Virus record (IMG/VR): IMGVR_UViG_3300025093_000015
Coordinates: 1-64,000 of that record
Direction: 5' to 3' (one strand)
Source of the DNA: a virus
Length of the DNA: 64,000 bases
This document shows, piece after piece, positions 2,356-45,442 of the stretch. Under the pieces are notes generated by a model. That model saw only the letters and a list, made by a program, of their open reading frames with translations. It made no database searches and was not told the origin of the DNA. Both the position numbers and the translations under genes were made by a program. Numbering within the stretch: position 1 is the first letter of the stretch; the number at the start of each line of letters is the position of its first letter.

Positions 2356-2655
2356 ATGGATTGGAATCTATTAGGCACTATTATTATTACAGCATTGACT
2401 GTGCTAGGTAGTAGTGAAGCGTTTAAATTTTACAAATCCAGACTAGCATTAAAAAGCAAAAGTATGGATTTAAAAGAAGAATACAAAGAAGATCTAAAGA
2501 AAAGAGTAAATAGGTTAGAAGTTCTTTTAACTGAGTCATCTAAAGAAAAAGATGATCTAAGATTATGTGTAATTAAATTAACAGAAGAGGTAGCAACTCT
2601 ACGTGAGAAAGTTAAATTTCTTGAAGCAGAAAATGAACGTCTTAAAAAAATATAA
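2356..2655 (+). CDS. Membrane-anchored coiled-coil protein
   Basis: N-terminal hydrophobic helix then heptad-rich charged region. Confidence 0.65.
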   Translation: MDWNLLGTIIITALTVLGSSEAFKFYKSRLALKSKSMDLKEEYKEDLKKRVNRLEVLLTESSKEKDDLRLCVIKLTEEVATLREKVKFLEAENERLKKI

Positions 2656-2657
2656 TT

Positions 2658-3284
2658 ATGGCAGATAAAAAACGAATGGCAGAACACTCAGCAAGGACTG
2701 GAGAAGCATTAGCATCATTGTATGGATCTTCAACTCCAATAACTAGCATTTTACCAGTACAAGAAAGAATAGATGTTTCAAAAACATCTGGAGAGTACAG
2801 AACAAGGGGTACAAAATCTCCAAATAGAACAACAATGCCAGAGAAGTTATTGTTACAAATTACAGATCCTGGTGACGCACCTACAGCACCAACTGTAGTT
2901 AGCAATCCTGGTACATTAGATAGTCCAAGTGAAGCACATATTTCTAGATATAGACCAGCATCATATGATAGTAGATCTGGCCGTTGGGATACTAGACATC
3001 CAAGTTATAGAACTGATGTAGCTACTTTAACAAATGCAATATCTAGGTATAATACATATCAATCAGATTTACAATCATATAATAGAAATTTAACTGATTA
3101 TAATACAGCTGTTGCACAAAGAAATACAGATACAGCTACAAATACTACAAGAACTAATCAATATCAAAGAGATCTTCAAAAGTTCTTTACTTCATTAGGT
3201 AAAAAGAAAGCAAGTAAAAAAGTAGCAACAAGAACAAGAGGTTCTAGAAATCCTGGAACATCATCAAGTAGAGGTACAAGATAA
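2658..3284 (+). CDS. Hypothetical protein, Thr/Arg-rich with basic C-terminus
   Basis: 208 aa ORF abutting the upstream gene. Confidence 0.65.
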   Translation: MADKKRMAEHSARTGEALASLYGSSTPITSILPVQERIDVSKTSGEYRTRGTKSPNRTTMPEKLLLQITDPGDAPTAPTVVSNPGTLDSPSEAHISRYRPASYDSRSGRWDTRHPSYRTDVATLTNAISRYNTYQSDLQSYNRNLTDYNTAVAQRNTDTATNTTRTNQYQRDLQKFFTSLGKKKASKKVATRTRGSRNPGTSSSRGTR

Positions 3285-3296
3285 AAAATTAAAATT

Positions 3297-3800
3297 ATGG
3301 CTAGATATAAAAGATATAGATACGGTGGTAAAAGAGTACCAGGAATGTATGCTCAGGATGGTAAAGAAACACCAATGAATCCAGTACCACCTCAGATGCA
3401 ATCAATGAATGAAAAACCTACTATTCAATCTTCTGGAGAAGCTCAGGCTTTACGTACACAAAATCAAATAGTTGAACAAACAATGTTAGAAAATGCCATG
3501 AGACAACAACAAATGGCAGCAATGATGCAACAGATGCAGATGCAAAATATGTTGTTACAACAGCAAAATCAATTACAACAGGTTCAAATTGAAAAAATGG
3601 ATTTGATTAATAGTGCTAGAACAACAAAGAAACCTGTAGGACCTGTAAATTCTCCTAAAAGAAAAGGTGGCTCAAATAGTAGAAAACCTAGAGTAAATGT
3701 AGTAATGTCACAAGGTCAAGGAACAACCTTTAGACATGGAGGAGGAATGGGAAAAAAAGGTAAGTGTTTGCCAGGAGGTAGATTCAGTAAAAGAAGGTAG
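3297..3800 (+). CDS. Gln/Met-rich basic protein, possible virion internal protein
   Basis: 167 aa; RYGG, AQDG and RHGG motifs; poly-Q tract. Confidence 0.6.
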   Translation: MARYKRYRYGGKRVPGMYAQDGKETPMNPVPPQMQSMNEKPTIQSSGEAQALRTQNQIVEQTMLENAMRQQQMAAMMQQMQMQNMLLQQQNQLQQVQIEKMDLINSARTTKKPVGPVNSPKRKGGSNSRKPRVNVVMSQGQGTTFRHGGGMGKKGKCLPGGRFSKRR

Positions 3801-3802
3801 TT

Positions 3803-4087
3803 ATGGCAAAAGAGTTAAATGAAGATACATCATTTAAGGTTAGTGTAAAAACTTTAATAGCTATTGCTATTGCTCTGTCAACAGTAATAGGCATGTGGTT
3901 TGCATTACAGGCAGATATAGAAGAAGCAAAAGAACTTCCTGTACCACCACCGCCAGATGTTACACGTATGGAGTTTGATATGAAAGATAAAAATATTAGA
4001 CTAACAATACAAAATACTGCAGATGATGTTGAAGAAATTAAAGATGACATCAAACGTATAGAAGAAAAAATAGATAAACTAAGATAA
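3803..4087 (+). CDS. Single-TM protein with Pro linker and coiled coil
   Basis: TM LIAIAIALSTVIGMWFAL, PVPPPP linker, C-terminal heptads. Confidence 0.7.
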   Translation: MAKELNEDTSFKVSVKTLIAIAIALSTVIGMWFALQADIEEAKELPVPPPPDVTRMEFDMKDKNIRLTIQNTADDVEEIKDDIKRIEEKIDKLR

Positions 4088-4112
4088 TAATTAACTTTAA
4101 ATTAAATAAAAA

Positions 4113-4511
4113 ATGGCAAGTGCAAATTTTAAATTAACGTTAGGTTCAACAGACTTAACTACTGACGCTCTGAATCTTTCAACAAGTAAAGATCTAGCTA
4201 GTTGTACATCAGGTGGTGTATTACGTATTGTACTTGATACAACTGCACATTCAAGTGCAACAGAACTTGTATCAGCTACAAAATATACAGAAGGAGCTTA
4301 TGTATGGATTCATAATCCAGCTACTCCTGTTTCATCTGGTAATGATAGAATTTATGTATCAGTTGATGAAACATCAGCAACACCAATCATACTAAAAGGT
4401 GGTGATTGGGCTTTAATACCTTGGGCAGGAACAACTAGAACCACTGATAAAAATATTTTAGCATGGGGTGCTTCTGCAGGTCTTATTGTAGAGTTTGGAA
4501 TATATCAATAA
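4113..4511 (+). CDS. Small beta-rich protein (possible virion decoration), paralog of 4536..4928
   Basis: Shares LTTxAxxL, GGxxR, YVxxxN, AxxPW and EF/YG features with the next ORF. Confidence 0.65.
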   Translation: MASANFKLTLGSTDLTTDALNLSTSKDLASCTSGGVLRIVLDTTAHSSATELVSATKYTEGAYVWIHNPATPVSSGNDRIYVSVDETSATPIILKGGDWALIPWAGTTRTTDKNILAWGASAGLIVEFGIYQ

Positions 4512-4535
4512 TAATTAAAAAAATATTTAGAAATT

Positions 4536-4928
4536 ATGGCAACATTAAATATAACAGCAGATATTGCAAGTACCGGTTTAACAACTAATGCAATTTCTTT
4601 AAATCTTTTGAAAGCTGCTAGTGTTACTACAGGAGGTATTGTAAGAACTACTACAACTGCAGAAAAATCTAGTAAAGCAGTTTTATTAGCTCATGCAGAT
4701 TATACTGCAGCATCTGCAACAGGAAGTACATATGTATATCTTAAAAATGTAACAGGTCAACCACTTAGAATATCTTTGATAGGTAACACTAGTAATGATG
4801 ATGAGTTTGAAGTAGCATTGCCAGTAGGTACATTTGCTCTATTTCCATGGAAAGCTGATACTGCTAATATTACAGTATATCAAACTTCATCTGGTACTAC
4901 TACTATAGAGTACGGAGTATTCAATTAA
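4536..4928 (+). CDS. Small beta-rich protein, paralog of 4113..4511
   Basis: Same motif order; ends IEYGVFN versus VEFGIYQ. Confidence 0.65.
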   Translation: MATLNITADIASTGLTTNAISLNLLKAASVTTGGIVRTTTTAEKSSKAVLLAHADYTAASATGSTYVYLKNVTGQPLRISLIGNTSNDDEFEVALPVGTFALFPWKADTANITVYQTSSGTTTIEYGVFN

Positions 4929-4929
4929 T

Positions 4930-5286
4930 ATGAAAAATTCTGTTTGGAAGATATTTGGGATCTACCTTTTATTGCTAGTTTGTATTTTATTTTCACAGCA
5001 ATCATTTGGTCAAGTAACTGTTGTACAGTACAATGCAAATTGGAATGATGCAAACAAAGTAACTTGGCTAAAAAAATTATCTGATGTTGATAAAGTAAAA
5101 GATGTATGTATAGCTGAAGATCCTAAAGCCCAACAAAAACATGAAATAGTTGTAGTACCTACTATAATTATTTTTAAAGATGGTGAAGAGGTAAAAAGAT
5201 ACCAAGCAGATATATCATTTACAATGAAGGCTACTAGAGAAGAGATACAAGAATTTATTGACGAACTTATAATGAGTGATTTTTAA
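4930..5286 (+). CDS. Secreted thioredoxin-fold protein lacking CxxC
   Basis: Signal peptide ending SFG-Q; VVQYNANWN in place of WCxxC; VVPTIIIFKDGEEVKR cis-Pro segment. Confidence 0.7.
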   Translation: MKNSVWKIFGIYLLLLVCILFSQQSFGQVTVVQYNANWNDANKVTWLKKLSDVDKVKDVCIAEDPKAQQKHEIVVVPTIIIFKDGEEVKRYQADISFTMKATREEIQEFIDELIMSDF

Positions 5287-5287
5287 T

Positions 5288-7750
5288 ATGAAAAAACTTT
5301 TATTTCCACTATTAATATTATTATCTAGCTTTGCATTATCACAAAATTCTTATATTGTCATAGAAGCACAATATGATTCATGGGGACCTGCAGAATCTCA
5401 ATTTTATATTACAGATGCCCAAGGTGATACTGTGTATCATCATCAACCTACAGTGCAAAGTGAATATTTATTAGATACTTTATTTATAAACGCACAACCA
5501 CTTACGGCTATTTTATTAGATCAATATGGAGACGGATGGCAAGATACTGGTCAACAAGGTTATTTTAGAACATGGAATAATTGTCAAGATACAATAGTAG
5601 AATTTATATCTTCACCTACAAATTACTTTGCCACAGAAATAATAAACTTTAATCTGGGTCCATGTCTACCAAACGGACCTCCACCTCCACCATGCTTACC
5701 TGCAGTAGTTATAATTAATTTAGATCAGTATCAATCAGAAACGTCCTGGGAGATTACTGATACTTTAGGTTTTGTAGTAGCATCAGGTAGTGGTTATGGT
5801 TCACAACCAGATTATGGAACTGTTGTTGTTCCTGTATGTTTACCACAAACTGTATTAAATTTTACAATATTTGATTCTTATGGAGATGGTTTAAATGGTT
5901 CACTTTGGCAAGGTCAAGATGGATCTTATTTTGTTAAACAATGTGGTGATACGTTAGTATATGGTACAGATCCGGCTTTTGGTACAGACACAACACATGT
6001 CTTTACTATAAGTGAATGCCCTCCTATATATGGGTGTACAGATGATGATTATGTAGAATGGAATCCGTTTGCAGATACTGATGATGGTAGCTGTCAAACA
6101 TTAAAAGTATTTGGGTGCATTGATCCAGATGCATTTAATTATGATTCTACAGCTAACACAATGGACCTAGTTCCACAATGTGAGTTTACACTAATACTGC
6201 ATGATCTAATGGGTAATGGTTGGGTTGGTTCAAATTTAGAATTAGAGTTGCCTGATACGTCTTTTAATTTTACTCACACAGGTGGTTTCAATGATGAATA
6301 CCAATTTACAATAGATGCTCCGGATCCTGCTACGTTTAGGTTTCAAATATCTCCACAGGCTGCACTAACTACTATAGAGTGTGGGTTTACTTTACTTAAT
6401 CCAGAGGGTGATACATTAATTAGTGTTCAACCTCCATTTATACAACCTTTGTTTCCATATTCTTTTATTACTAATTGTGGTAATACGTGTATAGAAAAGA
6501 TATTTGGGTGTACAGATAGCCTAGCTTTAAACTATTATGATGAGGCTAATACAGATGATAGCTCTTGTTACTATGTGGCAGGATGTATGAACCCACTATA
6601 TTTAGAATATGATACAGCTGCTGATTATGATGATGGATCATGTGTAACTTTAATTGTTGCAGGATGCATGGACTCAACAGCTCTTAACTATGATCCGCTA
6701 GCAAACGTAGAGATACCAGGATCATGTGTAGCAATAGTAGAAGGATGTATGAATCCTTTAGCATTTAACTATAATCCTAATGCTAATGTTGATGACTCAA
6801 CATGTATACCAGTTGTTGATGGTTGTACAAATCCTATTGCACTTAATTATGATTCAACTGCTAATACAGATGATGGTTCTTGTGTATTACCAGTGCCAGG
6901 GTGTACAGACCCTAATGCATTTAATTACAATCCCCTAGCAAATGTAGATGACTCAAGTTGTATTGATATAGTATATGGTTGTACAGATGCTTCTGCTTTT
7001 AACTATAATCCTTTAGCCAATGTAGATAATGGTTCTTGTGAACCTTTTGTGTTTGGTTGTATGGATTCTACTATGTTTAATTTTAATCCTTTAGCAAATA
7101 CAGATGACAATAATTGCATTCCTTTTATTTATGGTTGTACTGATCCAAGCATGCTCAACTACAATCCACAAGCTAATACAGAAGACTTTAGTTGTATTGC
7201 TTACATTTATGGTTGTACTGATAGTACTGCCCTTAATTATGATCCGTTGGCTAATACTGACAACGGCACGTGTATTGAAGTGGTTACAGGGTGTATGGAT
7301 CAAGGTGCGTGGAACTATGAACCTTTAGCAAATGTTAATGACTCAGCTTCTTGTTTATATAGTGCTGGTTGTATTGATGGTCCAGGTAATCCTTATTGGT
7401 TAAATGATGGATGTTATGCATGGGTAATTGATGTAGATGTTTATTGCTGTGAAAATGCATGGGATGCATCATGTCAAACAATGTATGATTATTGTCAACT
7501 TGGATGGCCTACAAATATAGATGATTTATCAGTAATAGGTGTTGTAATATACCCTAACCCAACAACTGGAATTGTAAGAATATCTACAAGATTAGAAATA
7601 CAATTAAAGGTTTTAGATATGAGTGGAAAAACTATAATTGATGAGCTTAATCCACAAGTAATAGATTTATCAGACTATGCAGATGGTCTATATAATATTA
7701 TAGTAAATGTTAATGATAAACAATACTTCAATAAAATTATAAAACAATGA
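5288..7750 (+). CDS. Secreted Cys-repeat protein with type IX secretion (type A) C-terminal sorting domain
   Basis: Signal peptide MKKLLFPLLILLSSFALSQ (ATG 5288); three related domains with (D)xxGDG/GNGW; ~13 Cys repeats; C-terminal IYPNPTTG...IDLSDYADGLY...KIIKQ. Confidence 0.85.
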   Translation: MKKLLFPLLILLSSFALSQNSYIVIEAQYDSWGPAESQFYITDAQGDTVYHHQPTVQSEYLLDTLFINAQPLTAILLDQYGDGWQDTGQQGYFRTWNNCQDTIVEFISSPTNYFATEIINFNLGPCLPNGPPPPPCLPAVVIINLDQYQSETSWEITDTLGFVVASGSGYGSQPDYGTVVVPVCLPQTVLNFTIFDSYGDGLNGSLWQGQDGSYFVKQCGDTLVYGTDPAFGTDTTHVFTISECPPIYGCTDDDYVEWNPFADTDDGSCQTLKVFGCIDPDAFNYDSTANTMDLVPQCEFTLILHDLMGNGWVGSNLELELPDTSFNFTHTGGFNDEYQFTIDAPDPATFRFQISPQAALTTIECGFTLLNPEGDTLISVQPPFIQPLFPYSFITNCGNTCIEKIFGCTDSLALNYYDEANTDDSSCYYVAGCMNPLYLEYDTAADYDDGSCVTLIVAGCMDSTALNYDPLANVEIPGSCVAIVEGCMNPLAFNYNPNANVDDSTCIPVVDGCTNPIALNYDSTANTDDGSCVLPVPGCTDPNAFNYNPLANVDDSSCIDIVYGCTDASAFNYNPLANVDNGSCEPFVFGCMDSTMFNFNPLANTDDNNCIPFIYGCTDPSMLNYNPQANTEDFSCIAYIYGCTDSTALNYDPLANTDNGTCIEVVTGCMDQGAWNYEPLANVNDSASCLYSAGCIDGPGNPYWLNDGCYAWVIDVDVYCCENAWDASCQTMYDYCQLGWPTNIDDLSVIGVVIYPNPTTGIVRISTRLEIQLKVLDMSGKTIIDELNPQVIDLSDYADGLYNIIVNVNDKQYFNKIIKQ
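6500..7360 (+). repeat. 11 tandem ~26-aa repeats GC(T/M)(D/N)xxAxNYxPxANxDDxSC
   Basis: Counted in the translation; two more copies near 6030-6160; DNA-level copies are diverged. Confidence 0.85.
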
Positions 7751-8841
7751 GGAAGACAATAGATATAACACCAGTTATATATGTTTTAGTAATGATTGTA
7801 ATGTTCTTAATAGGAACAACTTCTGCTTTTAGTCAGGAAAGTAATTTTAAAAGCAGCCTTAAAAAAACATTTAAGTTTGCTACTTTTTACGGTGCTATCA
7901 ATGGTAACAACTCTATTTCAGATGTTGATGTATTTTCAGTTACGAATGGATTAGAAAAAGAAACAATAGAGACTCCATTTGACTATTCAATGTCAGTTGG
8001 TATTAGAAAGATTGCTAGATTTGGATACGAGAATAGAGCTAATACATTTTATGATGGTAGTGAAAAATCATACAGTGATGCAGCAACGTTAGGTAAAGTA
8101 AGAGGTTTTGAGTTTCTTTTTGAATTAGATTACGCTAGACAACAAGGTACCGACTTTCTCAATCAACAGCACTTCTTAAGATATGTAGCTAACAGATGGA
8201 TAGCAAAGGTAGAATATGTCCAGGATGGTTTTGCGGATATTAAGTATTACGAGTCATCACAAAGGTATAGACAAAAGTTCAACAATAAGTTTTCATTGAA
8301 TATAGGTGCAGTACAAAGACTGTCTGAACCATATGGATACGATCCACTAGAAGAGTGGGTGCTATCTACAGGAGACATACACTACACAAACCTTGCTTTA
8401 GAAGAAGGGTATAATGTAGAATTTGATGGCTCAGGCGGAGTAACCTATCTTAATCCTAATGGGAACGTTGTAGCAGAAAACACCCAGGTATGGGAAGCTG
8501 TGGTGATCCCTGAAGTACTATCCAACTATGTAGAAAAGAAAAGAAATGAGTTACCAACACAGTGGAACCATTCTCTAGTAATAGGGTTGGACTATTACCA
8601 TTTTACAAAAGACTTTTGGGTACATACCTGGGGAAACATAATGCCTTATCACTATGATGCGGGAGGAGAGTATTCTTATCATACATTCCACGGAGGACAA
8701 TGGACAGACTACTCTGGTGGTTTAATTTTTGGATGGAGAGCTAGTAAGCATCTTGGTTTTTTCTTAGAAGGTAAGTACAATAAGTATTGGAATAGACAAT
8801 GGCATGACTTTAAATTGGGTGTCAATTACGTGATATTCTGA
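7747..8841 (+). CDS. Putative outer-membrane beta-barrel protein
   Basis: Signal peptide ending AFS-Q, aromatic amphipathic strands, C-terminal FKLGVNYVIF; start overlaps the T9SS gene stop (ATGA). Confidence 0.7.
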   Translation: MRKTIDITPVIYVLVMIVMFLIGTTSAFSQESNFKSSLKKTFKFATFYGAINGNNSISDVDVFSVTNGLEKETIETPFDYSMSVGIRKIARFGYENRANTFYDGSEKSYSDAATLGKVRGFEFLFELDYARQQGTDFLNQQHFLRYVANRWIAKVEYVQDGFADIKYYESSQRYRQKFNNKFSLNIGAVQRLSEPYGYDPLEEWVLSTGDIHYTNLALEEGYNVEFDGSGGVTYLNPNGNVVAENTQVWEAVVIPEVLSNYVEKKRNELPTQWNHSLVIGLDYYHFTKDFWVHTWGNIMPYHYDAGGEYSYHTFHGGQWTDYSGGLIFGWRASKHLGFFLEGKYNKYWNRQWHDFKLGVNYVIF

Positions 8842-8851
8842 TATTTTTTTT

Positions 8852-8860
8852 GTATATTAT
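8852..8860 (+). promoter_or_regulatory. GTATATTAT phage promoter motif
   Basis: T-tract + GTATATTAT 24 nt before the 8885 ATG. Confidence 0.65.
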
Positions 8861-8884
8861 AATATAACCATAAAATAATTTAAT

Positions 8885-9067
8885 ATGATTAATTGGATTA
8901 ATTCCTGGAAATCAGGAAATAAAAAAGAGAAGTATGAGATCAATGTAAGAATTGGTAAACTAACTGTATTAGAAGTTATGTTTTGTCCATGTGAAGTATG
9001 TGAGAACAAAAAAGCTTATTGTGCAAAGTTTAGATTTATGATCTTTAACTTAGGATTTGAACTGTAA
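8885..9067 (+). CDS. Small hypothetical protein with Cys cluster
   Basis: 60 aa; CPCEVC...C. Confidence 0.6.
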   Translation: MINWINSWKSGNKKEKYEINVRIGKLTVLEVMFCPCEVCENKKAYCAKFRFMIFNLGFEL

Positions 9068-9087
9068 CAATTTAAAAGAATAAACCA

Positions 9088-9390
9088 ATGAGTTTAAAAG
9101 AATTTAACGGCCTAAAAAATGTAGAAGTTTCTGAAGGAAGAGCTCAGATGACTTTTTGTGCTAACTGCAAATCATGCCCTGCTATTGATATTTCTGCTGA
9201 GTCAGATACAGTTGTAGTAGGTGGTGATGAAGAAGGATATACATCTTTCACTAAAGAACAATTTAAATTATTTGCTGATGTAGTTAAGTCAGGAGCATTT
9301 GACAAATACATGGCTAAGAAATGTGCATGTGGTAAAACACAAGATCCTGATGGAAACTGTGATGGTTCACATGCTGATAAATGTGAGTAA
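9088..9390 (+). CDS. CDGSH iron-sulfur domain protein with extra CxxCxxC motif
   Basis: C-terminal CACGKTQDPDGNCDGSH; N-terminal CANCKSCP. Confidence 0.75.
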   Translation: MSLKEFNGLKNVEVSEGRAQMTFCANCKSCPAIDISAESDTVVVGGDEEGYTSFTKEQFKLFADVVKSGAFDKYMAKKCACGKTQDPDGNCDGSHADKCE

Positions 9391-9623
9391 TGTCTAAAAA
9401 CTGGATTAAAGGAGCAATAAAAAAACCGGGATCTCTTACCGCTGCTGCTAAAGCAAAAGGTATGAGTATATCTCAGTATTGTCAAAATCCACCATCTACA
9501 TTAGCAAAGCAAAGATGTAACTTAGCAAAGACATTAAAAAGTTTTAAGAAGGCTGAAGGAGGACAAGTACAAGGATGTGGTTGTCCATATGGAATGGAAA
9601 TGGGCCCAAATAGAGTATTATAA
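9390..9623 (+). CDS. Small basic protein
   Basis: KNWIKGAIKKPGSL..LAKTLK; AEGG motif; coupled to upstream gene by TAATG. Confidence 0.65.
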   Translation: MSKNWIKGAIKKPGSLTAAAKAKGMSISQYCQNPPSTLAKQRCNLAKTLKSFKKAEGGQVQGCGCPYGMEMGPNRVL

Positions 9624-9624
9624 T

Positions 9625-10020
9625 ATGAGTATACTAGGAAAAATATTTAGCGGAGGTGCAGGAGAACTGGTTGAATCAGTTGGTGGGGTTCTAGATAACC
9701 TAACTACATCCAAAGAAGAAAAGCTAGAAGCTAAAAGAAAACTAAAAGAATTAATCCTGAAGCATGAAGCTGAGATGGATAAACAAATAACTGAACGTTG
9801 GAATGCTGATATGGCATCTGACTCTTGGTTATCTAAGAATGTAAGACCAATGGTTCTTATATTTTTAATTGTTTGCACTATGCTACTTATTTTTATTGAC
9901 GCAGGTGCAATAAGCTTTGTTGTAGAAGAGAAGTGGACTGATCTACTGCAACTAGTATTAATAACAGTAATAGGTGCTTATTTTGGTGGCCGTTCTGTGG
10001 AGAAAGTAAAGAAAAAATAA
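9625..10020 (+). CDS. Holin, 3TM/GTA-holin-like family
   Basis: Likely start MSILGKIF at 9625; SDSWLSKNVRP motif, two clear TM helices, AYFGGRS. Confidence 0.75.
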   Translation: MSILGKIFSGGAGELVESVGGVLDNLTTSKEEKLEAKRKLKELILKHEAEMDKQITERWNADMASDSWLSKNVRPMVLIFLIVCTMLLIFIDAGAISFVVEEKWTDLLQLVLITVIGAYFGGRSVEKVKKK

Positions 10021-10039
10021 CTATTAAAAATTAGAAATT

Positions 10040-10288
10040 ATGCCAATGCACATTAAAGGAGGCTTTAAAAGTAAAAATGGCCTTGTAACTTACGGAGCTG
10101 GAGGAGCTTATGGAGCTGCACCATCAGCAAGAAGAGCAAAAGATAAAGCTCAAAAAGGAAAAGAACTTAAAGAAGTACCTCCTGGTAAAGAAGGTGCTGG
10201 TTTAAGACAATTATCTAGATCAGTACGTAACAATATGGGTTACGCAAGATATGGAACATCAATGGATCCTAAAAAAACTAGAAAATAA
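10040..10288 (+). CDS. Small basic Gly-rich protein
   Basis: 82 aa, Lys/Arg/Gly-rich. Confidence 0.6.
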   Translation: MPMHIKGGFKSKNGLVTYGAGGAYGAAPSARRAKDKAQKGKELKEVPPGKEGAGLRQLSRSVRNNMGYARYGTSMDPKKTRK

Positions 10289-10291
10289 ATT

Positions 10292-10429
10292 ATGGCTAGG
10301 AAAGTAAACGTATATGTATTTACAGGTAATAAGAAAAAGAAAAGACCTGGAGTACATGCTAAGACCAAAACTAGTAAAAGTAAAGGAGCTCAGAACTATA
10401 AAAAACAATATGTAGGTCAGGGCAGATAA
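10292..10429 (+). CDS. Small Lys-rich protein (45 aa)
   Basis: Manually translated MARKVNVYVFTGNKKKKRPGVHAKTKTSKSKGAQNYKKQYVGQGR*. Confidence 0.65.
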   Translation: MARKVNVYVFTGNKKKKRPGVHAKTKTSKSKGAQNYKKQYVGQGR

Positions 10430-10439
10430 TTTTATAAGT

Positions 10440-11534
10440 ATGCCTATATATAATCCAGGACCACAAATAGCAATGCCTCCTATTAGGGGTGGTTATGTTT
10501 TATCATTTTATGATGGTACAGCAAGTGAAACACAACTGTATAGTCAAAATGATATTTTAGGTTTTGGTAAAGGTACCAATCAGTTAATTATTTATATGAA
10601 AGGTGCCAGAGATGTCAATGCTAAAGATACAATAACAATAACTCTTAATCCTACAACAATTACTGCTGATAGAGCACAAGTAATATTAATGGAAGGTATA
10701 CGTGAGCTTAATACTCATCCTTCTAATGAAGTAATTAAAAAAGTTGTAGCTCCTTTACAAGGTGATAATGATTTTGTACATGAGTTTGCTTCTTGTACAA
10801 TAGCTTATGGAACATGTTGTTCTGGAGGTGGCGGAGATACTTATACTTTAGAAGCAAGTGCAAAAGCAGGTTCCAATGTTCCTTTACTTTTAGATGCTGC
10901 TTCTGGATCTGACTCTACAGTTAATTTAACTGAAGGTACAAACATTACTTTAACAAGAAACAGTGCAACACAAGTTACTATAGATGCATCTGTTCCTAAT
11001 GTATATCATCAAATAAATAATCATAATTTATTTCTAGCATCATGGGACATGAGAGATCCATACTTGTTTCCTATATTAGAAGACCGTGGTTCAGGATTTT
11101 ATACAGGTAAGAATATAGGATCTTCAGTTAGTCCAGGATCATATCCATCAGATGAAGCTTTTAAATGGCAAACTAACCTTGAGAGAGCAACAACTGCATG
11201 GGATAGAGTAAGTTGGTATACTTTATCAATGGCTAATATGACAGATGCAGACATTGCTGCTTTAGGTACTGGAGGTCAAGTAAAAGCTATATTATATAGA
11301 TATAGTCCATCTGCTGGAGACAGTACTTTTAATTATACAACACAAATATTAGGTGATGTAGATTTTAATACAACAGCAAATAGAGTGCAAACAAATGCAC
11401 AAACTACTAATATAACACTTTCAGTAGGTGATTTATTTTTTATAGGTTATCAATATACTGTAACAGCAGGATCTGCATCAGGTGCTATTACTAACCTAAG
11501 ATTACAAACTACAGGTAGGTTCTGGAAATCATAA
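10440..11534 (+). CDS. Putative virion fiber/spike-like protein
   Basis: 364 aa; GGGGDTY linker, VNLTEGTNITLT fiber-like segment, beta-rich C-terminus. Confidence 0.55.
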   Translation: MPIYNPGPQIAMPPIRGGYVLSFYDGTASETQLYSQNDILGFGKGTNQLIIYMKGARDVNAKDTITITLNPTTITADRAQVILMEGIRELNTHPSNEVIKKVVAPLQGDNDFVHEFASCTIAYGTCCSGGGGDTYTLEASAKAGSNVPLLLDAASGSDSTVNLTEGTNITLTRNSATQVTIDASVPNVYHQINNHNLFLASWDMRDPYLFPILEDRGSGFYTGKNIGSSVSPGSYPSDEAFKWQTNLERATTAWDRVSWYTLSMANMTDADIAALGTGGQVKAILYRYSPSAGDSTFNYTTQILGDVDFNTTANRVQTNAQTTNITLSVGDLFFIGYQYTVTAGSASGAITNLRLQTTGRFWKS

Positions 11535-12099: not shown

Positions 12100-12939
12100 T
12101 TAAAAAATATATCTTATGGTAGATAAATTAAAATATTTACCATAGATGCTCTTAAAGTCACTAAGTAACTTTGTCTTTTGTCTAAGTGGGTATCTCATGA
12201 CTCCACTATAATTTTTTACTTCATTTGAATACTTCATGTATTCCCGTGCCTCTTCACTTGCTTTATTCATTTGATTAACATGATTAGTAAGTGCAATAAC
12301 TTCACATTTATTTTCACCTGCGTATTTCTTTACAAGTTTAAATAGTGTATCATACTCATCACGCCAACCTGGATAAAATACAAGTGGAGAATAATTAAGA
12401 TGAACTTCCCATCCAAGATCTTTTAGTCTATTGACATCATGAATCCTAGATAGTATCTTCTGCATCTTTGGCTCAAGAACATCTGAATACTTTTGTGGCA
12501 TAAGACTAACACGCACACGTGGCCTTTTATTAAAGTGATTTACATCAAGCTTTAATAAACCTGGATACTTAGTAGCCATAGTGCTATTAAGTTGTGGGTG
12601 ATCATCATACATCTTAAGATAATTATGAAGTGTCCCTGGTACATGCTTCTGCATCAAAACTAAGTCTGAATTGCATGCAATGTCTACCATTGTATATACA
12701 GGATCTTGTTGATTAGGAACTTTATTATAAGTTTTTTCCCATTCAACTACAGAGTTAAATATCTGGTCAACATTCTCATTGACAAATACTCTGTGTCCAT
12801 TATACCTTGACATATAACAATAGGTGTCTACACAACCACCAAAACATCCATAGATTATATTTGGTGCAATGCAATCAGAGCTATTGTTATTTGTCTTAGT
12901 AACTAAAGTTTTTGTTTTTTGATATTTTAACTTGGCCAT
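12100..12939 (-). CDS. Spore photoproduct lyase-like radical SAM protein
   Basis: GCFGGCVDTYCY cluster motif, DIACNSD, ATK, RVRVSLMP, GWEVHLNYSP, MRYP. Confidence 0.8.
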   Translation of the reverse strand: MAKLKYQKTKTLVTKTNNNSSDCIAPNIIYGCFGGCVDTYCYMSRYNGHRVFVNENVDQIFNSVVEWEKTYNKVPNQQDPVYTMVDIACNSDLVLMQKHVPGTLHNYLKMYDDHPQLNSTMATKYPGLLKLDVNHFNKRPRVRVSLMPQKYSDVLEPKMQKILSRIHDVNRLKDLGWEVHLNYSPLVFYPGWRDEYDTLFKLVKKYAGENKCEVIALTNHVNQMNKASEEAREYMKYSNEVKNYSGVMRYPLRQKTKLLSDFKSIYGKYFNLSTIRYIF

Positions 12940-13036: not shown

Positions 13037-13732
13037 TTACCATTGGATTTCTTCTTCTCCTCTTTCTTTGAGATTTTCATTTATCTTCTTAAATAAGTTA
13101 TCACTATCCCACTTACCACCACGGTATGCAGCAGCTGCAGGATGAATTACAAAATGTTTTTTATGGTCATTAGAAATCATATTTGCAAATGGTTTTGCCT
13201 TAGCACCCATAAATACAAAATCAATAACTTTAGAATAATCATTTAAAACATTACTAAATATAAACTCTGTCCAACCTTTCCATGTCTTAACATGTGCGCC
13301 AATATTATCTACTTCACATGTCAGTGCAGTATTTAACATAAGCACGCCTTGCTTAGACCATCTACTTAGATCACAATCTCTAGTTGCATCTGGATACTGT
13401 GTCTGAAGTTCATCAAAAATATATCTTAATGATGGCTGTTCTTTATTAGTCTTAGAACAACTAAATGCTATTCCGTCAGCAACATCTGCCTGTGGATATG
13501 GATCTTGTCCAACAATTACAACCTTAAGATCATTATAATTGCATAGCTCATATGCTTTTAATAGATCTTTAAATTTAGGTGTAAACTTTTTACCATCACT
13601 TACTTCTGACATAAGTGTTTCTATAGGCCTTCTAAACTGTGGGGAATGGATTAAGTTCCATATATCTGTCTCATACCAGCCTGAAGGTTTTAATTTATTA
13701 ATAAATTTTTCTTGTATTTCTTCTATTTCCAT
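13037..13732 (-). CDS. ung: Uracil-DNA glycosylase, family 1
   Basis: VVIVGQDPY, GIAFS, PSLRYI, QGVLMLN, HP motif. Confidence 0.92.
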   Translation of the reverse strand: MEIEEIQEKFINKLKPSGWYETDIWNLIHSPQFRRPIETLMSEVSDGKKFTPKFKDLLKAYELCNYNDLKVVIVGQDPYPQADVADGIAFSCSKTNKEQPSLRYIFDELQTQYPDATRDCDLSRWSKQGVLMLNTALTCEVDNIGAHVKTWKGWTEFIFSNVLNDYSKVIDFVFMGAKAKPFANMISNDHKKHFVIHPAAAAYRGGKWDSDNLFKKINENLKERGEEEIQW

Positions 13733-14118
13733 TATATTGCATATTGTTTTTTTACTTTATCTGATATTGGTATAGGATCATTGTTTTCATCTATTCTAAC
13801 AAATCTTATATTAGTTGATAGTATAACAGATTGATCACCTGAATATACATTGTGTACTCTTGCTTCTAAATAAAATGTAATAGAAGTATTACCAATATGT
13901 ACAACTTTACCATATATTTTTATAAGTTGTCCTTCTTTTGCAGGTTTTTTAAATATACATTTATCTATCATTACTGTAACCATACGCGGTGTATCACATA
14001 CTTGCATAGCATATGCTGCACCTGCTGCGTCTAACCAAGCTAAAAGTTTTCCTCCAAATAGATTAGCATGAAAACCTAAATCAGATTTTTTAATTGGATG
14101 TGTTGTTATTAATTTCAT
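13732..14118 (-). CDS. Acyl-CoA thioesterase, hotdog fold (YciA-like)
   Basis: NLFGGKLLAWLDAAG, VTV, FKKP, GNTSI. Confidence 0.85.
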   Translation of the reverse strand: MKLITTHPIKKSDLGFHANLFGGKLLAWLDAAGAAYAMQVCDTPRMVTVMIDKCIFKKPAKEGQLIKIYGKVVHIGNTSITFYLEARVHNVYSGDQSVILSTNIRFVRIDENNDPIPISDKVKKQYAI

Positions 14119-18288: not shown

Positions 18289-19277
18289 TATAACACTACA
18301 TTACCTTTAGCAAATTCATATGGTAAACTATAATCTCTTTTTTCATAATGGTAATTAGCTTCTTTTAATGTTGCTTCAAAACCATCATACCACTCTCTTA
18401 GTGTATTATCACTAACATCAAATATATATACTTGATCATAGTTATCTATGACAACAAAATTAAAAGTAATTTTATAATTACTTACATCTTCAATAGAATT
18501 TTTTATCACCAATGTAATGTAAATAACTGCTTGCATCCAATAGTTATAATAATCAACTGTCTCTGCAAACTTATCTAAACTTTTAGATGTTGTTTTAAAA
18601 TCTATAATAGTTATTTCTTTTGATTCATGATCAATAACATATCTATCAACATAACCCTTAAGACCAAATTTATAATCTTTTAAATCACATTCTAAATATT
18701 TCTCATTCCATGCTTCAATAGGATCTATTTCAAAGTCAGTAACAGATACTTCAAGTAAAGATGATACATCTTTATTATCTTTAATAATATCTACTCTTTC
18801 TTTTGCTTTTGCAAGCATGTCATTATCTATAATATCTTTACCACTAGTATCACACATAAATGCATAGTAATCTTCACATTCAGGAGTACGAACCTTAGCT
18901 AAACGTTTAGATTCATCTTTAAGTGATTGATATAAGTTCATAGATTTTAAAGAGTCTAGTATAACAAAATCTTCACAAGCTGCAAGTGTATCTGCATCTG
19001 TATGAAGTGTTATATCTTTTAACACCTTCCTCAACGATTCAGATGGTACTTTATTAGGAACAATAGAAAATTCTTCATGTAGTTTTTCAGGTTGTAATAA
19101 CAACAGATGTAATAGCTTGCCTTCAATAAGGTGCTTATCTGTCTTTTCTTCCCTTTCTTTAAGGATATAATCTTTATAAAAAAGTGATGGACTAAACAAT
19201 AGTTTATTCAATGATGAATAACTAAACTTATAATCCTTGTTGTAAAATTCTTCTTCTTTTATTGGATCTTTTTTCAT
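18288..19277 (-). CDS. PD-(D/E)XK exonuclease (RecE/DUF3799-like)
   Basis: Start MKKDP at 19277; SYSSL, GKLLH, KGYVDR, IIDFKT, YWMQAVIY. Confidence 0.8.
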   Translation of the reverse strand: MKKDPIKEEEFYNKDYKFSYSSLNKLLFSPSLFYKDYILKEREEKTDKHLIEGKLLHLLLLQPEKLHEEFSIVPNKVPSESLRKVLKDITLHTDADTLAACEDFVILDSLKSMNLYQSLKDESKRLAKVRTPECEDYYAFMCDTSGKDIIDNDMLAKAKERVDIIKDNKDVSSLLEVSVTDFEIDPIEAWNEKYLECDLKDYKFGLKGYVDRYVIDHESKEITIIDFKTTSKSLDKFAETVDYYNYWMQAVIYITLVIKNSIEDVSNYKITFNFVVIDNYDQVYIFDVSDNTLREWYDGFEATLKEANYHYEKRDYSLPYEFAKGNVVL

Positions 19278-19369
19278 AATTAAAATTTTAATGGTAAGAG
19301 AAGCACGGGCTTCCACAAGATATTATAACCTAACCCGTACTTTCCTACCGCTGGTAAATTCACACTAAA

Positions 19370-37066: not shown

Positions 37067-37091
37067 AATAATCTATTTAATTAGTTAACTG

Positions 37092-37165
37092 TACACCCAG
37101 TAGGACTTGAACCTACAACCTACAGCTTAGAAGGCTGTTGCTCTATCCAATTGAGCTATGGGTGC
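37092..37165 (-). tRNA. tRNA-Arg(TCT)
   Basis: GCACCCA/TGGGTGT acceptor, TAGCTCAATTGGATAGAGC D-arm, ACAGC-CTTCTAA-GCTGT anticodon arm, GTAGG-TTCAAGT-CCTAC T-arm; CCA not encoded. Confidence 0.95.
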
Positions 37166-40808: not shown

Positions 40809-41024
40809 ATGTGGAAATTATTTAAAGATGAAAATGACATCAATGAAAAAGCTGTAGTAGGCTTTGCTTCATTTATACTAATGGTAATATTTGCTATATG
40901 TGATCTTATTACCGGATGGTGTGGAATGGAGCTTGTAATAAATGAAGTTATATACAACTCATTTGTTATTGTAACTCTTGGGAGCTTTGGTATAAGCTCA
41001 TTTGAGAAAATTAAAGGTAAATAA
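40809..41024 (+). CDS. Two-TM membrane protein, holin-like
   Basis: Start MWKLFKD; two TM helices, basic C-terminus. Confidence 0.6.
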   Translation: MWKLFKDENDINEKAVVGFASFILMVIFAICDLITGWCGMELVINEVIYNSFVIVTLGSFGISSFEKIKGK

Positions 41025-41031
41025 ATCATCT

Positions 41032-41691
41032 ATGACAAATAAAGAAAAGACTCCTCCAAAAGGGAGTATTAGGTTTTCATTAAGCCTTTCACCAGAACAA
41101 AAAAAGGCTAAGACAGAAATTTTAAAACATCCTTATAACTTTGTAGTAGGAAATGCTGGAAGTGGTAAGACATTACTTGCTGTCCAGATAGCACTTGATC
41201 TTTTATTCAAAAGGCAAGTAAATAAAATTATAATAACAAGACCTACAGTATCTACAGAAGATAATGGATTTCTACCAGGATCAGAGCATGAAAAGATGGA
41301 ACCTTGGTTAGTTCCTATTAGATCTAACATGCGTAAGGTATATAACAAACCTTTAATCTTGCAGAAACTTGAAAAGGAAGAAAAAATAGAATTGGTATCA
41401 CTTGCACACTTTAGAGGACGTACTTTTGATGACTCAGTAGTAATAGTAGATGAATACCAAAATTTAACAAAATCACAACTAGCAATGTGTATTGGAAGAT
41501 TAGGTAAAGAATCTAAGATGATTTTTTGTGGTGATTCATATCAAATAGATTTAAAAGACAAACAACACTCAGCTTTTCATGATATGTCTAAACTTATTCC
41601 ATCTCAATATGTTTTTAAAACAACATTAAAAGATTCTCATAGACATCAAGCAATAAATGAACTATTAGAGATGTTAAACGGGTATCATTAA
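41032..41691 (+). CDS. phoH: PhoH family ATPase
   Basis: GNAGSGKT, GFLPG, RGRTF, DEYQN, GRLG, GDxxQID. Confidence 0.92.
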   Translation: MTNKEKTPPKGSIRFSLSLSPEQKKAKTEILKHPYNFVVGNAGSGKTLLAVQIALDLLFKRQVNKIIITRPTVSTEDNGFLPGSEHEKMEPWLVPIRSNMRKVYNKPLILQKLEKEEKIELVSLAHFRGRTFDDSVVIVDEYQNLTKSQLAMCIGRLGKESKMIFCGDSYQIDLKDKQHSAFHDMSKLIPSQYVFKTTLKDSHRHQAINELLEMLNGYH

Positions 41692-41766: not shown

Positions 41767-42102
41767 ATGGCAACAAAAACAAAAGTGAAGGATATTGATC
41801 CTAAAACAGCATCTAAAAAAGAAATGGATGCAAAAAGAAAGGAAGTTACACAATTTTACAAAGATAACATTCCCCATTTAGAAACTCAATTAAAGTATGA
41901 AGAATTACTTAGAGATATTGAGAAAACACGTGCTGAAAGACTACAAGCTCAAATGTTTATTGCACAAACAATGGCTACTCCAACTGAAGAAGAAGGAGAA
42001 GATTCAAATGAAATGAGAGCAGAATTTAATGCAAATGCTGATGGTGCAGAAGCAGCAAGGCAAATTAAAAGAACTTTAAAACGTGAAGCAAATGGTGTAT
42101 AG
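41767..42102 (+). CDS. Hypothetical coiled-coil protein
   Basis: 111 aa. Confidence 0.7.
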   Translation: MATKTKVKDIDPKTASKKEMDAKRKEVTQFYKDNIPHLETQLKYEELLRDIEKTRAERLQAQMFIAQTMATPTEEEGEDSNEMRAEFNANADGAEAARQIKRTLKREANGV

Positions 42103-42712
42103 TGTTGATCATATAAGACGTGCTTTAGAACGTAAAAATTATAAGTTTTTTGAAAACGGTGACTATAATGTCAATATAGTAGGAGTAAGAAACTCCCTAA
42201 CTAAGGATAAGGTAACAAATGCTTTTGATGATCTTATGACTTTATGTTATAAGATTGATGGTGAATGGCAGTATCATGAATTTGATTGTACTACTGATCC
42301 TGGAACTCATTATATGAATAGTCCTATAGTAGAAAGTAAAGGTACAGCAATACTAAAACCAGGACAATACAGAGGTTCTCACAAGATTAGAAAGCATCAA
42401 GGTAGATATGAAGCTTTAGGTCAGTGTAGACCAGTAACAGTGTATAGAGACAATAATAGAGATGATGTATATAATTTAAATACTGAAAATACAGATACAG
42501 GTTTATTTGGTATTAATATACACAGAGCAACTAAGTATGCAGGTAAAAAATCTAGTCAAGTAGATAAATGGTCTGCAGGTTGTCAAGTTATTGCAGCTAA
42601 TGATGATTGGACTAAATTTATGAAGATCATGAGAAAAGCTAGAGATACATGGAGTAATAGTTTTACATATACACTTATTGAAAGTGAAGATATACCAACA
42701 ACATGGCTCTAG
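42092..42712 (+). CDS. Putative endolysin, L,D-transpeptidase(YkuD)-like peptidase
   Basis: TTDPG, GINIH...WSAGCQV His/Cys catalytic pattern. Confidence 0.7.
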   Translation: MVYSVDHIRRALERKNYKFFENGDYNVNIVGVRNSLTKDKVTNAFDDLMTLCYKIDGEWQYHEFDCTTDPGTHYMNSPIVESKGTAILKPGQYRGSHKIRKHQGRYEALGQCRPVTVYRDNNRDDVYNLNTENTDTGLFGINIHRATKYAGKKSSQVDKWSAGCQVIAANDDWTKFMKIMRKARDTWSNSFTYTLIESEDIPTTWL

Positions 42713-45169: not shown

Positions 45170-45442
45170 ATGAGTAAAATTAGACCAGTAGGAGATAGAC
45201 TCCTAATTAAACAACACAAATCAGAAGAAACTTATGGTAATACAGGAATATATATTCCAGAATCTTCACAAGAAAAACAAGATAAAGGTACAGTTGTTTC
45301 TGTAGGAGAAGATGTAGAAGGTATACATGAAGGTGAAGTTGTATTATTCAATCAGTTTATTCAACCGGTAAAAGTAAACCACATGGATGAAGATCATATC
45401 TTGTTAAGACAACAAGATATATGGGCAATACAAGATGTATAA
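45170..45442 (+). CDS. groES: Co-chaperonin GroES
   Basis: IRPVGDRLLI, GIYIP, GTVVSVG, GEVVLF. Confidence 0.9.
   Translation: MSKIRPVGDRLLIKQHKSEETYGNTGIYIPESSQEKQDKGTVVSVGEDVEGIHEGEVVLFNQFIQPVKVNHMDEDHILLRQQDIWAIQDV

Follow-up and report, generated by a model that had tools for sequence, protein, structure and literature searches.

Why would a phage encode, in one cluster, four exported proteins of which one carries the sorting signal of its host's type IX secretion system (T9SS)? The question is raised by a locus of an uncultured marine phage in IMG/VR virus record IMGVR_UViG_3300025093_000015; the window analyzed here is the whole 64,000-nucleotide stretch from position 1 to 64,000 of that record. 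The cluster encodes a bitopic inner-membrane protein with a predicted coiled coil (TMcc), a thioredoxin-fold protein (Trx), a Cys-rich secreted protein (the cargo) and an outer-membrane beta-barrel. Because these are four exported proteins of defined location that are co-inherited, linked to lysis genes and confined to phages, we tentatively favor the view that the module is a lysis-linked, periplasm-spanning device on the outer membrane, which would play a spanin-like role without being a member of a spanin family. We give this view rather less than an even chance.

The source record is a linear viral sequence of 87.7 kb, estimated by CheckV to be 76% complete, of which the window is a part. 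It contains the usual phage genes, including those for ribonucleotide reductase, DNA polymerase, primase, helicases, terminase, portal and major head protein. The portal is 23-34% identical to the portals of crAss-like phages, of the Cellulophaga phages phi17:2 and phi4:1, and of a Leptolyngbya phage. The similarity to crAss-like and Cellulophaga phage portals, together with the T9SS C-terminal domain (CTD) of the cargo, suggests that the host belongs to the Bacteroidota.

The module genes are located within a 9-kb plus-strand block (2356..11534) with minus-strand genes on either side (Table 1). The initial annotation described the genes for Trx, cargo and barrel as tightly coupled, and this is borne out: a single base separates the Trx stop codon from the cargo ATG, and the cargo stop and barrel start overlap by 4 nucleotides (ATGA), an arrangement kept in 71 of 76 related loci. 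A scan for sigma-70 promoters, with 37 sites seen and 51 expected, is uninformative. All four proteins begin with a signal peptide or transmembrane segment that is kept across relatives, in agreement with the export signals proposed earlier for three of them; signal peptides were called throughout by a heuristic based on hydrophobicity and cleavage site.

Table 1. Features of the module and its surroundings (window coordinates)
Feature	Coordinates	Strand	Description	Basis or remark
TMcc	3803..4087	+	Bitopic inner-membrane protein, 94 aa, no Cys	Heuristics, co-location
Paralogous genes (two)	4113..4511, 4536..4928	+	About 130 aa each, no signal peptide	Between TMcc and Trx
Trx	4930..5286	+	Secreted thioredoxin-fold protein, 118 aa	Family profile; W-N-x-x-N replaces W-C-x-x-C
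Cargo	5288..7750	+	Cys-rich secreted protein, 820 aa from ATG	GTG at 5276 also open
Cargo signal peptide	5288..5344	+	Residues 1-19, ends ...L-S-Q	Heuristic only
Cargo N-terminal region	5345..6502	+	Residues 20-405, three predicted beta-sandwich domains	AlphaFold model
Cargo main repeat array	6506..7366	+	Residues 407-693, 26-aa Cys/Asp repeats	13 copies including two earlier ones
Cargo Cys knot	7367..7546	+	Conserved Cys-knot region before the tail	Alignment
Cargo CTD	7547..7750	+	T9SS type A CTD, residues 754-820, plus stop codon	PF18962, TIGR04183
Barrel	7747..8841	+	Predicted outer-membrane beta-barrel, 364 aa, no Cys	AlphaFold model, structural neighbors
Small four-Cys reading frame	8885..9067	+	60 aa, starts M-I-N-W-I-N-S-W	Recurs in lysis cassettes of relatives
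Holin	9577..10020	+	Probable ATG at 9625	phrog_3427, E = 4.9e-32; PF11351, 28.5 bits, above cut-off
Candidate endolysin	42083..42712	+		61% identical to a protein beside holin or barrel in relatives

Co-inheritance was followed in three samples of viral loci. The clade-1 sample of 81 loci comprises 80 fetched loci, one of them near-identical to the window, and the window's own locus; the clade-2 sample of 80 loci was gathered with a single distant barrel member as query; and a third, sister sample of 45 loci was fetched with an untagged (CTD-less) cargo form. The barrel is present in all 81 clade-1 loci, and TMcc, Trx and cargo in 78 each, usually in the order cargo, barrel, TMcc, Trx. Clade-2 barrels, found on at least 96 contigs, are about 32% identical to that of the window; their loci contain TMcc in 74 and Trx in 71 of 80 cases, the two always adjacent. 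TMcc recurs in 39 of the 45 sister loci, where gene orders are shuffled and the four genes still occur together. Thus 3803..4087, which the initial annotation offered as a possible fourth part, is a true member of the module, and the co-location that it expected in other phage contigs is conserved in all three samples. Median identities to the window's proteins are 61% for the barrel, 62% for TMcc, 46% for Trx, 47% for the holin and 34% for the cargo N-terminus; barrel and TMcc are more conserved than the holin, and the head of the cargo is the fast-evolving part. The module spans at least two deep clades and genome sizes of 29 kb, 40-90 kb and 110-120 kb.

The module is usually contiguous with holin and endolysin genes, complete 29-kb genomes included. 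This lysis-cassette setting was missed by the initial annotation. In the window, the holin gene starts 0.7 kb downstream of the barrel's end (8841 to 9577), and 66 of 81 clade-1 and 46 of 80 clade-2 loci have a holin gene no more than about 8 kb from the barrel. Compact clade-2 loci have the order barrel, small secreted protein, small transmembrane protein, TMcc, Trx, Peptidase_M15_3, holin. The Peptidase_M15_3 gene stood between Trx and holin in all five loci tested, and its profile matches 54 of 80 clade-1 loci at the same position. Five records of about 29 kb with the compact cassette are 100% complete according to CheckV, one of them with terminal repeats. Two such genomes, examined whole, have a contiguous cassette of barrel, 9-Cys protein (the clade-2 partner of the barrel, described below), TMcc, Trx and endolysin, in which the four module genes occupy about 2.1 kb, or roughly 7% of a 29-kb genome. 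Upkeep of the module in such small genomes resembles that of a core function, as does the better conservation of barrel and TMcc relative to the holin. A heuristic search for reading frames with a lipobox found none in these two complete genomes, which consequently hold no canonical o-spanin or u-spanin candidate. The window's candidate endolysin has no Pfam match; its relatives match phrog_33083, annotated 'endolysin' (E = 2.5e-13 and 8.5e-15), as well as phrog_3000, and an endolysin-type gene is beside the holin in locus L253 and directly upstream of the barrel in locus L104.

The last gene of the coupled trio was initially annotated as a barrel with an aromatic end, and structure prediction agrees. 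The AlphaFold model (pLDDT 76.8, pTM 0.70) has a short helix at the N-terminus, about 14 DSSP-assigned strands, an insert spanning residues 200-268 and a C-terminal aromatic residue (...Y-V-I-F); about 15 residues separate the signal peptide from the start of the barrel. Its structural neighbors are exclusively outer-membrane barrels, with 12-strand barrels leading: Tsx (Z 14.7, root-mean-square deviation 3.8, 188 residues aligned), KdgM (13.6), EstA (13.6), NanC (12.8) and NalP (12.4), and, by Foldseek, NanC (E = 3e-6) and FapF (E = 4e-5; Z 10.4). FadL homologues reach only Z 6.8-7.7, against Z 12-14.7 for 12-strand barrels, whereas the model itself has about 14 strands. We describe the protein as a predicted outer-membrane barrel of 12-14 strands. 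Residues G358, N360 and Y361 near its C-terminus are invariant across 32 relatives. The most conserved stretch, R91..G116, is invariant, yet it is a low-confidence loop in the model. The window's barrel has no family match in Pfam, NCBIfam (E up to 0.1) or PHROG, and none of 36 relatives matches any Pfam family at E up to 0.01. BFVD holds one clear structural relative, the unnamed viral protein A0A516LKJ4 (E = 2e-25, TM-score 0.61-0.64, 22% identity); other matches there are phage porins, OmpA-like and autotransporter-like proteins. The family amounts to 3716 metagenome protein clusters at 90% identity, none of them named.

The first gene of the trio was described as a thioredoxin fold without a CxxC motif. 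On its own, the window's protein falls under curated cut-offs (PF00085, 19.8 bits versus 23.5; TIGR01068, E = 5e-5). The family profile matches 57 entries of the PDB, nearly all thioredoxins or thioredoxin-like proteins (best 2vim, E = 4.8e-7), and this profile search assigns the protein as a thioredoxin relative. CxxC is found in none of 65 unique relatives. An alignment of 32 sequences drawn from the two clades shows no variation at N39, N42, P77, T78 and F118, with the cis-Pro-Thr loop intact. Because both catalytic Cys residues are invariably Asn, the protein is a putative binder and not an oxidoreductase, with the Asn-x-x-Asn pattern a predicted conserved binding site and not a sign of decay. 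The non-catalytic domains of protein disulfide isomerase are redox-inactive thioredoxin-fold binding domains, in which the cis-Pro loop is likewise kept and the catalytic Cys lost, and which bind partners. In contrast to these, the module's Trx is a phage-encoded protein of about 90 residues that is secreted and stands alone, with Asn invariably at both Cys sites. Residues N39, N42, P77 and T78 of Trx and the R91..G116 stretch of the barrel are perhaps surfaces of a binding type.

According to heuristics, and not a structure, TMcc has near its N-terminus a transmembrane helix at about residues 17-35, with its core at 18-35, from which a Pro-rich linker leads to a C-terminal helix of 42 residues that is free of Pro and Gly and whose heptads have hydrophobic residues at 75% of a/d positions. 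This layout fits that of an i-spanin, in which an N-terminal transmembrane segment (N-in, C-out) precedes a periplasmic helix with heptads. Complex prediction for the barrel, the periplasmic part of TMcc and Trx gave a score of 0.00 in two runs without controls, and is neutral on binding.

We infer that the module proteins would be made late in infection and bind one another, so that the dead thioredoxin, acting as an adaptor, would connect inner-membrane TMcc across the periplasm with the barrel and with the Cys-rich outer partner of the barrel. After the holin and endolysin have acted, this assembly may destabilize or open the outer membrane, which is the job of spanins elsewhere. The two-component spanins, such as lambda Rz/Rz1 and T4 PseT.3/PseT.2, similarly consist of an inner-membrane type II coiled-coil protein and an outer-membrane partner, are phage-only, and are encoded beside holin and endolysin, although in the window only the holin is adjacent. 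Unlike their small lipobox-Cys lipoproteins, the outer part of the module is a 364-aa barrel with an ordinary signal peptide; the module also has two extra parts, the dead Trx and the Cys-rich protein, its TMcc and barrel lack Cys, and it has no sequence match to spanin PHROGs. It is possible, if rather doubtful, that the module represents a new class in Bacteroidota phages in which a barrel replaces the o-spanin, together with a dead-Trx adaptor, a minimal coiled coil and an exchangeable Cys-rich partner, which in some lineages would be delivered to the surface by the host's own T9SS. The available text of Kongari et al. 2018 (PMC6139136) counts 91 of 677 phages as spanin-less, Bacteroides and Croceibacter phages among them, notes that most spanins depend on disulfides, and remarks of outer-membrane proteins that 'an OMP could act as an o-spanin'.

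Several observations weigh against a spanin-like role. The window's candidate endolysin is 32 kb from the holin, and Peptidase_M15_3 is missing from four relatives in the window's subclade that are 94-100% complete, so a position inside a lysis cassette is true in the window for the holin only. The window's holin has at least 598 relatives; in a survey of the best 80, which share 71-88% identity with it and many of which have short flanks, 5 loci had barrel, TMcc and Trx all near the holin and 72 had none of them. Eight holin loci with at least 6 kb on both flanks have neither the module nor a recognizable spanin pair next to the holin. Because close relatives of the holin mostly lack the module, this holin does not require it as a partner. 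TMcc and the barrel are free of cysteine, whereas most spanins depend on disulfides; TMcc has a short periplasmic part of 59 residues; and no fused or longer barrel forms were found, which is weak evidence. We know of no precedent for membrane disruption by a beta-barrel. Finally, a spanin-like job explains neither the dead thioredoxin nor a large, hypervariable fourth component with a T9SS tag.

That fourth component, the cargo, contains 41 Cys and 79 Asp residues. Its N-terminus has a basic n-region, a hydrophobic core and an S-Q site at residue 19; a basic, hydrophobic N-terminus is present in 54 of 59 unique relatives, followed in 53 of these by a site with small residues or Gln. The region of beta-sandwiches is modeled with a pLDDT of 86.4, with two Cys repeats between its second and third domains, and is the most variable part of the module. 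Neighbors of the sandwiches are merely generic, the best being a calcium-dependent carbohydrate-binding module (Z 6.5), with PLAT/C2-like domains at Z of about 6. Multi-C2 ferlins top the Foldseek list at E = 1.8e-6 but with a TM-score of 0.14, and these matches together are too generic to name a function; the ESM Atlas returned only unnamed viral clusters for this region. The initial annotation's estimate of about 13 Cys/Asp-rich repeats agrees with our count of 13 copies of a 26-aa, two-Cys, Asp-rich unit, 11 by strict pattern and 2 degenerate ones by eye. Downstream of the array, the Cys knot has invariant alignment positions C19, C25, C39, C50, C51, C59 and C66, and is common to CTD-bearing and short-tailed relatives. 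The cargo C-terminus, which had been taken for a type A sorting signal, scores above cut-off with both profiles (Por_Secre_tail PF18962, 40.8 bits against 27; TIGR04183, 34.4 bits against 23). It is thus assigned by profile as a genuine T9SS type A sorting domain, and export by the T9SS is predicted.

The CTD is present in all 31 closest cargo orthologs, 29 of them above cut-off, whereas precomputed annotations place it in just 41 of the 120 best homologues of the cargo N-terminal region. Among untagged homologues tested, 16 of 17 have no CTD match at E up to 0.1; in 13 of these 16, the Cys knot is followed by a tail of about 45 residues without the first and middle CTD motifs, and the other three look truncated. 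Tagged and untagged forms alternate among proteins that are 70-90% identical in the N-terminal region. In the sister sample, tails are short in 27 loci, CTDs in 14 and of another kind in 2; one is cut by a contig end and one locus has no cargo. The short tail was considered as a shortened CTD, which it resembles, but the tail itself has no significant alignment, and the score of the alignment between the two (E = 9e-21) comes from the shared Cys knot. In clade 2 no CTD is found in any of 80 loci with our own profile, or in any of 12 with Pfam. There, 72 of 80 loci encode a secreted protein of 148-266 aa immediately after the barrel, with exactly 9 Cys in 68 and 10 in 4; this protein combines a head rich in Cys with an acidic repeat region. 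A relationship of this 9-Cys protein to the C-terminal part of the cargo is unproven (hhalign probability 4.7%; tail versus tail 3.8%). Because the CTD is variable or missing across relatives (14/45, 41/120, 0/80), the module is not organized around the T9SS; other tails can take the place of the tag, and the constant feature is a barrel beside a Cys-rich secreted protein.

These findings bear on surface display, the role proposed in the initial annotation. Its CTD, barrel and export signals stand, and nothing emerged of what it had named as contrary evidence, namely a missing CTD, a fold other than a barrel, scattered homologues, or virion proteins that are not exported; the central place that it gave to the T9SS is not supported. 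The phage would decorate the infected cell with the Cys-rich protein, exported in this phage by the T9SS and held by or near the barrel, for receptor masking, exclusion of other phages, keeping progeny off debris, or cell adhesion, with Trx as a periplasmic holdase. The genuine CTD, conserved in all 31 closest orthologs, fits such a role, as do the overlap of cargo stop and barrel start in 71 of 76 loci and the different Cys-rich protein directly after the barrel in 72 of 80 clade-2 loci. The cargo sandwiches weakly match adhesin and carbohydrate-binding types (the module at Z 6.5 and the SiiE adhesin), the cargo N-terminus evolves fastest (34% median identity), as expected for a host-facing surface, and the 70-residue insert of the barrel would be outside the cell, judging from strand parity in the model. 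Display explains the variable, T9SS-tagged head better than a lysis role does. However, the CTD is dispensable in the family (27 short tails against 14 CTDs in 45 loci, and none in 80 clade-2 loci), and display leaves unexplained the inner-membrane coiled coil, the strict conservation of barrel and TMcc, and the linkage to lysis. The set adjoins late lysis genes and not early ones, although exclusion would be most useful early; 29-kb phages keep the module; and none of five proteins matched PADLOC. Display is the main rival and a strong one, though on the doubtful side; because the set sits in lysis cassettes, a lysis role is at least as likely.

Phage-encoded outer-membrane proteins exist, in line with display. 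Lambda Lom and Bor and phage porins are outer-membrane accessory proteins, by which a phage likewise supplies a beta-barrel to the host outer membrane; these are single genes, mostly of temperate phages, whereas the barrel of the module is inherited together with three other parts, in phages that appear to be lytic. T9SS cargo is also known from phages. According to the available text of Bellas et al. 2020 (PMC7468147), 'Cryophage' encodes a T9SS type A cargo, for which superinfection or competition roles are proposed, and that of de Jonge et al. 2019 (PMC6949934) reports proteins with T9SS sorting domains on crAss-BACON contigs. As in the window, a phage gene there has a host T9SS sorting domain and varies between phage variants; the cargos in those texts are enzymes, PA14 or BACON proteins, and the same texts describe no barrel, coiled-coil or thioredoxin partner and no link to lysis. 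The initial statement that no such phage system had been characterized remains valid for the four-gene set, which matches no described system, but not for T9SS-tagged phage proteins as such.

The pairing of cargo and barrel is reminiscent of T9SS systems of bacteria. SprB and SprF, and type B CTD proteins with PorP/SprF-like partners, are cases in which a T9SS cargo is encoded beside its cognate barrel, and they share with the module a repeat-rich T9SS cargo gene followed by a coupled barrel gene of about 350 aa. The module differs in that its CTD is type A, which to our knowledge needs no private barrel, and in that its barrel matches no PorP/SprF or PorV model. PorV has a FadL-like, 14-strand fold, whereas the neighbors of the module's barrel are 12-strand proteins; PorV, PorP and similar T9SS barrels are absent from its 50 best structural neighbors, and it persists where the partner has no CTD. 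Since the o-spanin hallmark fails and no T9SS barrel family matches, the module is filed as a phage envelope/lysis accessory system, in neither the spanin nor the T9SS barrel family.

Some neighbors of the barrel raise the alternative of a dedicated export or assembly system. The barrel would be a translocon or anchor for the Cys-rich partner, similar to autotransporter or FapF-type 12-strand barrels, the dead Trx would keep the partner export-competent, TMcc would tether or energize the process, and the product might be a fiber or matrix released at lysis. Neighbors do include the beta-domains of autotransporters (EstA at Z 13.6, NalP at 12.4, AIDA-I, Hbp and BrkA) and the amyloid exporter FapF (Z 10.4), although this likeness is merely at the level of general fold. 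The barrel gene is always adjacent to that of a Cys-rich, acidic, repeat-rich secreted protein, and the short-tailed and 9-Cys partners have no recognized secretion tag and so would need a route if they are surface-exposed. CTD-bearing forms have the T9SS as a route, yet they keep the barrel. No fusion of passenger and barrel was found (again weak evidence), the barrel has no POTRA domains, and a pore of 12-14 strands is narrow for a folded, disulfide-rich protein. We consider an export role improbable.

A quite different explanation is that the proteins are not exported to the envelope but are virion components, for example fibers of Cys repeats. The 26-aa repeat is also found in a 'virion structural protein' of Synechococcus phage S-CAM3 (NC_031906), with 15% of the query covered, and the small paralogs at 4113..4928, which lack a signal peptide, could be structural. 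However, all four proteins have a signal peptide or transmembrane segment and are thereby taken out of the cytoplasm, which is the compartment of tailed-phage assembly. The barrel also has the fold of an outer-membrane protein and an aromatic signal at its C-terminus, and the genes for head and tail form a block of their own, away from the module, at 45.4-87.7 kb. A virion role thus has a very slight chance of being correct. The 26-aa Cys/Asp repeat also occurs in Marine virus AG-345-P14. Judging from such matches, the repeat appears to move between phages of unrelated hosts.

The module is restricted to phages, as far as sequence searches tell. A scan of viral contigs confirmed 118 relatives of the barrel, and two scans together place it on at least 214 viral contigs. 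Near-identical DNA is present in 20 DNA sequencing runs from 10 marine or estuarine studies; the listed runs that hold a near-identical stretch include no RNA runs. A first scan of 185,579 species genomes, with single-sequence patterns, found nothing. The barrel is found in these genomes on only seven contigs, all belonging to metagenome-assembled genomes, with the labels Parvibaculum, Maricaulis, Rickettsiales, Nitrosopelagicus archaeon, Winogradskyella and Sphingobacteriales. Because these labels are mutually inconsistent, the seven are most likely mis-binned phage contigs. Searches of 50,697 deposited phage records found no barrel, Trx or TMcc, and the module can therefore not have been tested in any cultured phage. 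A literature search, mostly at the level of abstracts, found no paper describing a set of barrel, coiled-coil and thioredoxin proteins, and the available text of a Crassvirales review mentions merely 'spanins and lysins'.

Several smaller genes occur around the module. The 60-aa four-Cys reading frame downstream of the barrel has no PHROG match; it is near holin or endolysin genes in relatives (for example, loci L121, L096 and L253), and the module loci that match it by strict pattern number 4 of 80, 17 of 80 and 2 of 45. A function as lysis regulator is possible, and its membership in the module is uncertain. The next gene (9088..9390, plus strand) encodes a 100-aa protein without family match whose C-terminal C-x-C...C-D-G-S-H pattern is reminiscent of CDGSH iron-sulfur domains; a 45-aa reading frame with the same pattern (19205..19342 in G004) is inside the cassette of a complete 29-kb phage. 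Small, very basic, Gly- or Gln-rich proteins without family are encoded on the plus strand at 2658..3284, 3297..3800 and 10040..10288, the last directly after the holin. The available text of a preprint on the 'disruptin' of phage phiKT states that cationic peptides can disrupt the outer membrane, and by analogy 10040..10288 is an alternative candidate for outer-membrane disruption in this phage.

In 31 of 80 clade-2 loci, what separates the 9-Cys gene from TMcc is the gene of a 70-78-aa protein with two transmembrane segments, starting M-N/E-I-F-K-D-N-N (for example, 7780..7992 in locus L264). It overlaps the holin start in a phage without barrel, and is likely to be a holin partner rather than a module member. 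The two paralogs between TMcc and Trx have no Pfam, PHROG or NCBIfam match. Among module loci, their family (110-150 aa, one to four copies per locus) is present in 22 of 80, 24 of 80 and 31 of 45, and among loci with only the holin in 8 of 80. Auxiliary genes elsewhere in the window encode a Cpn10/GroES-like co-chaperonin (45170..45442), PhoH (41002..41691), a radical SAM protein similar to spore photoproduct lyase (12100..12939), a 4HBT thioesterase (13732..14118) and tRNA-Arg(TCT) (37091..37165).

Bacteroidota are dominant in the ocean and the gut, and it is an unsettled question how their phages cross the outer membrane as infection ends. The module is very common: the marine viral contigs that carry it number in the hundreds and its metagenome proteins in the thousands. 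Its thioredoxin with an invariant Asn-x-x-Asn is a clean target for structural work. Whatever its role, be it opening the outer membrane, masking the surface or exporting fibers, the module is a compact phage system of four proteins with a reach from inner membrane to cell surface, and one that can make use of the host's T9SS. If the spanin-like reading is true, the module would explain how many 'spanin-less' marine phages finish lysis.

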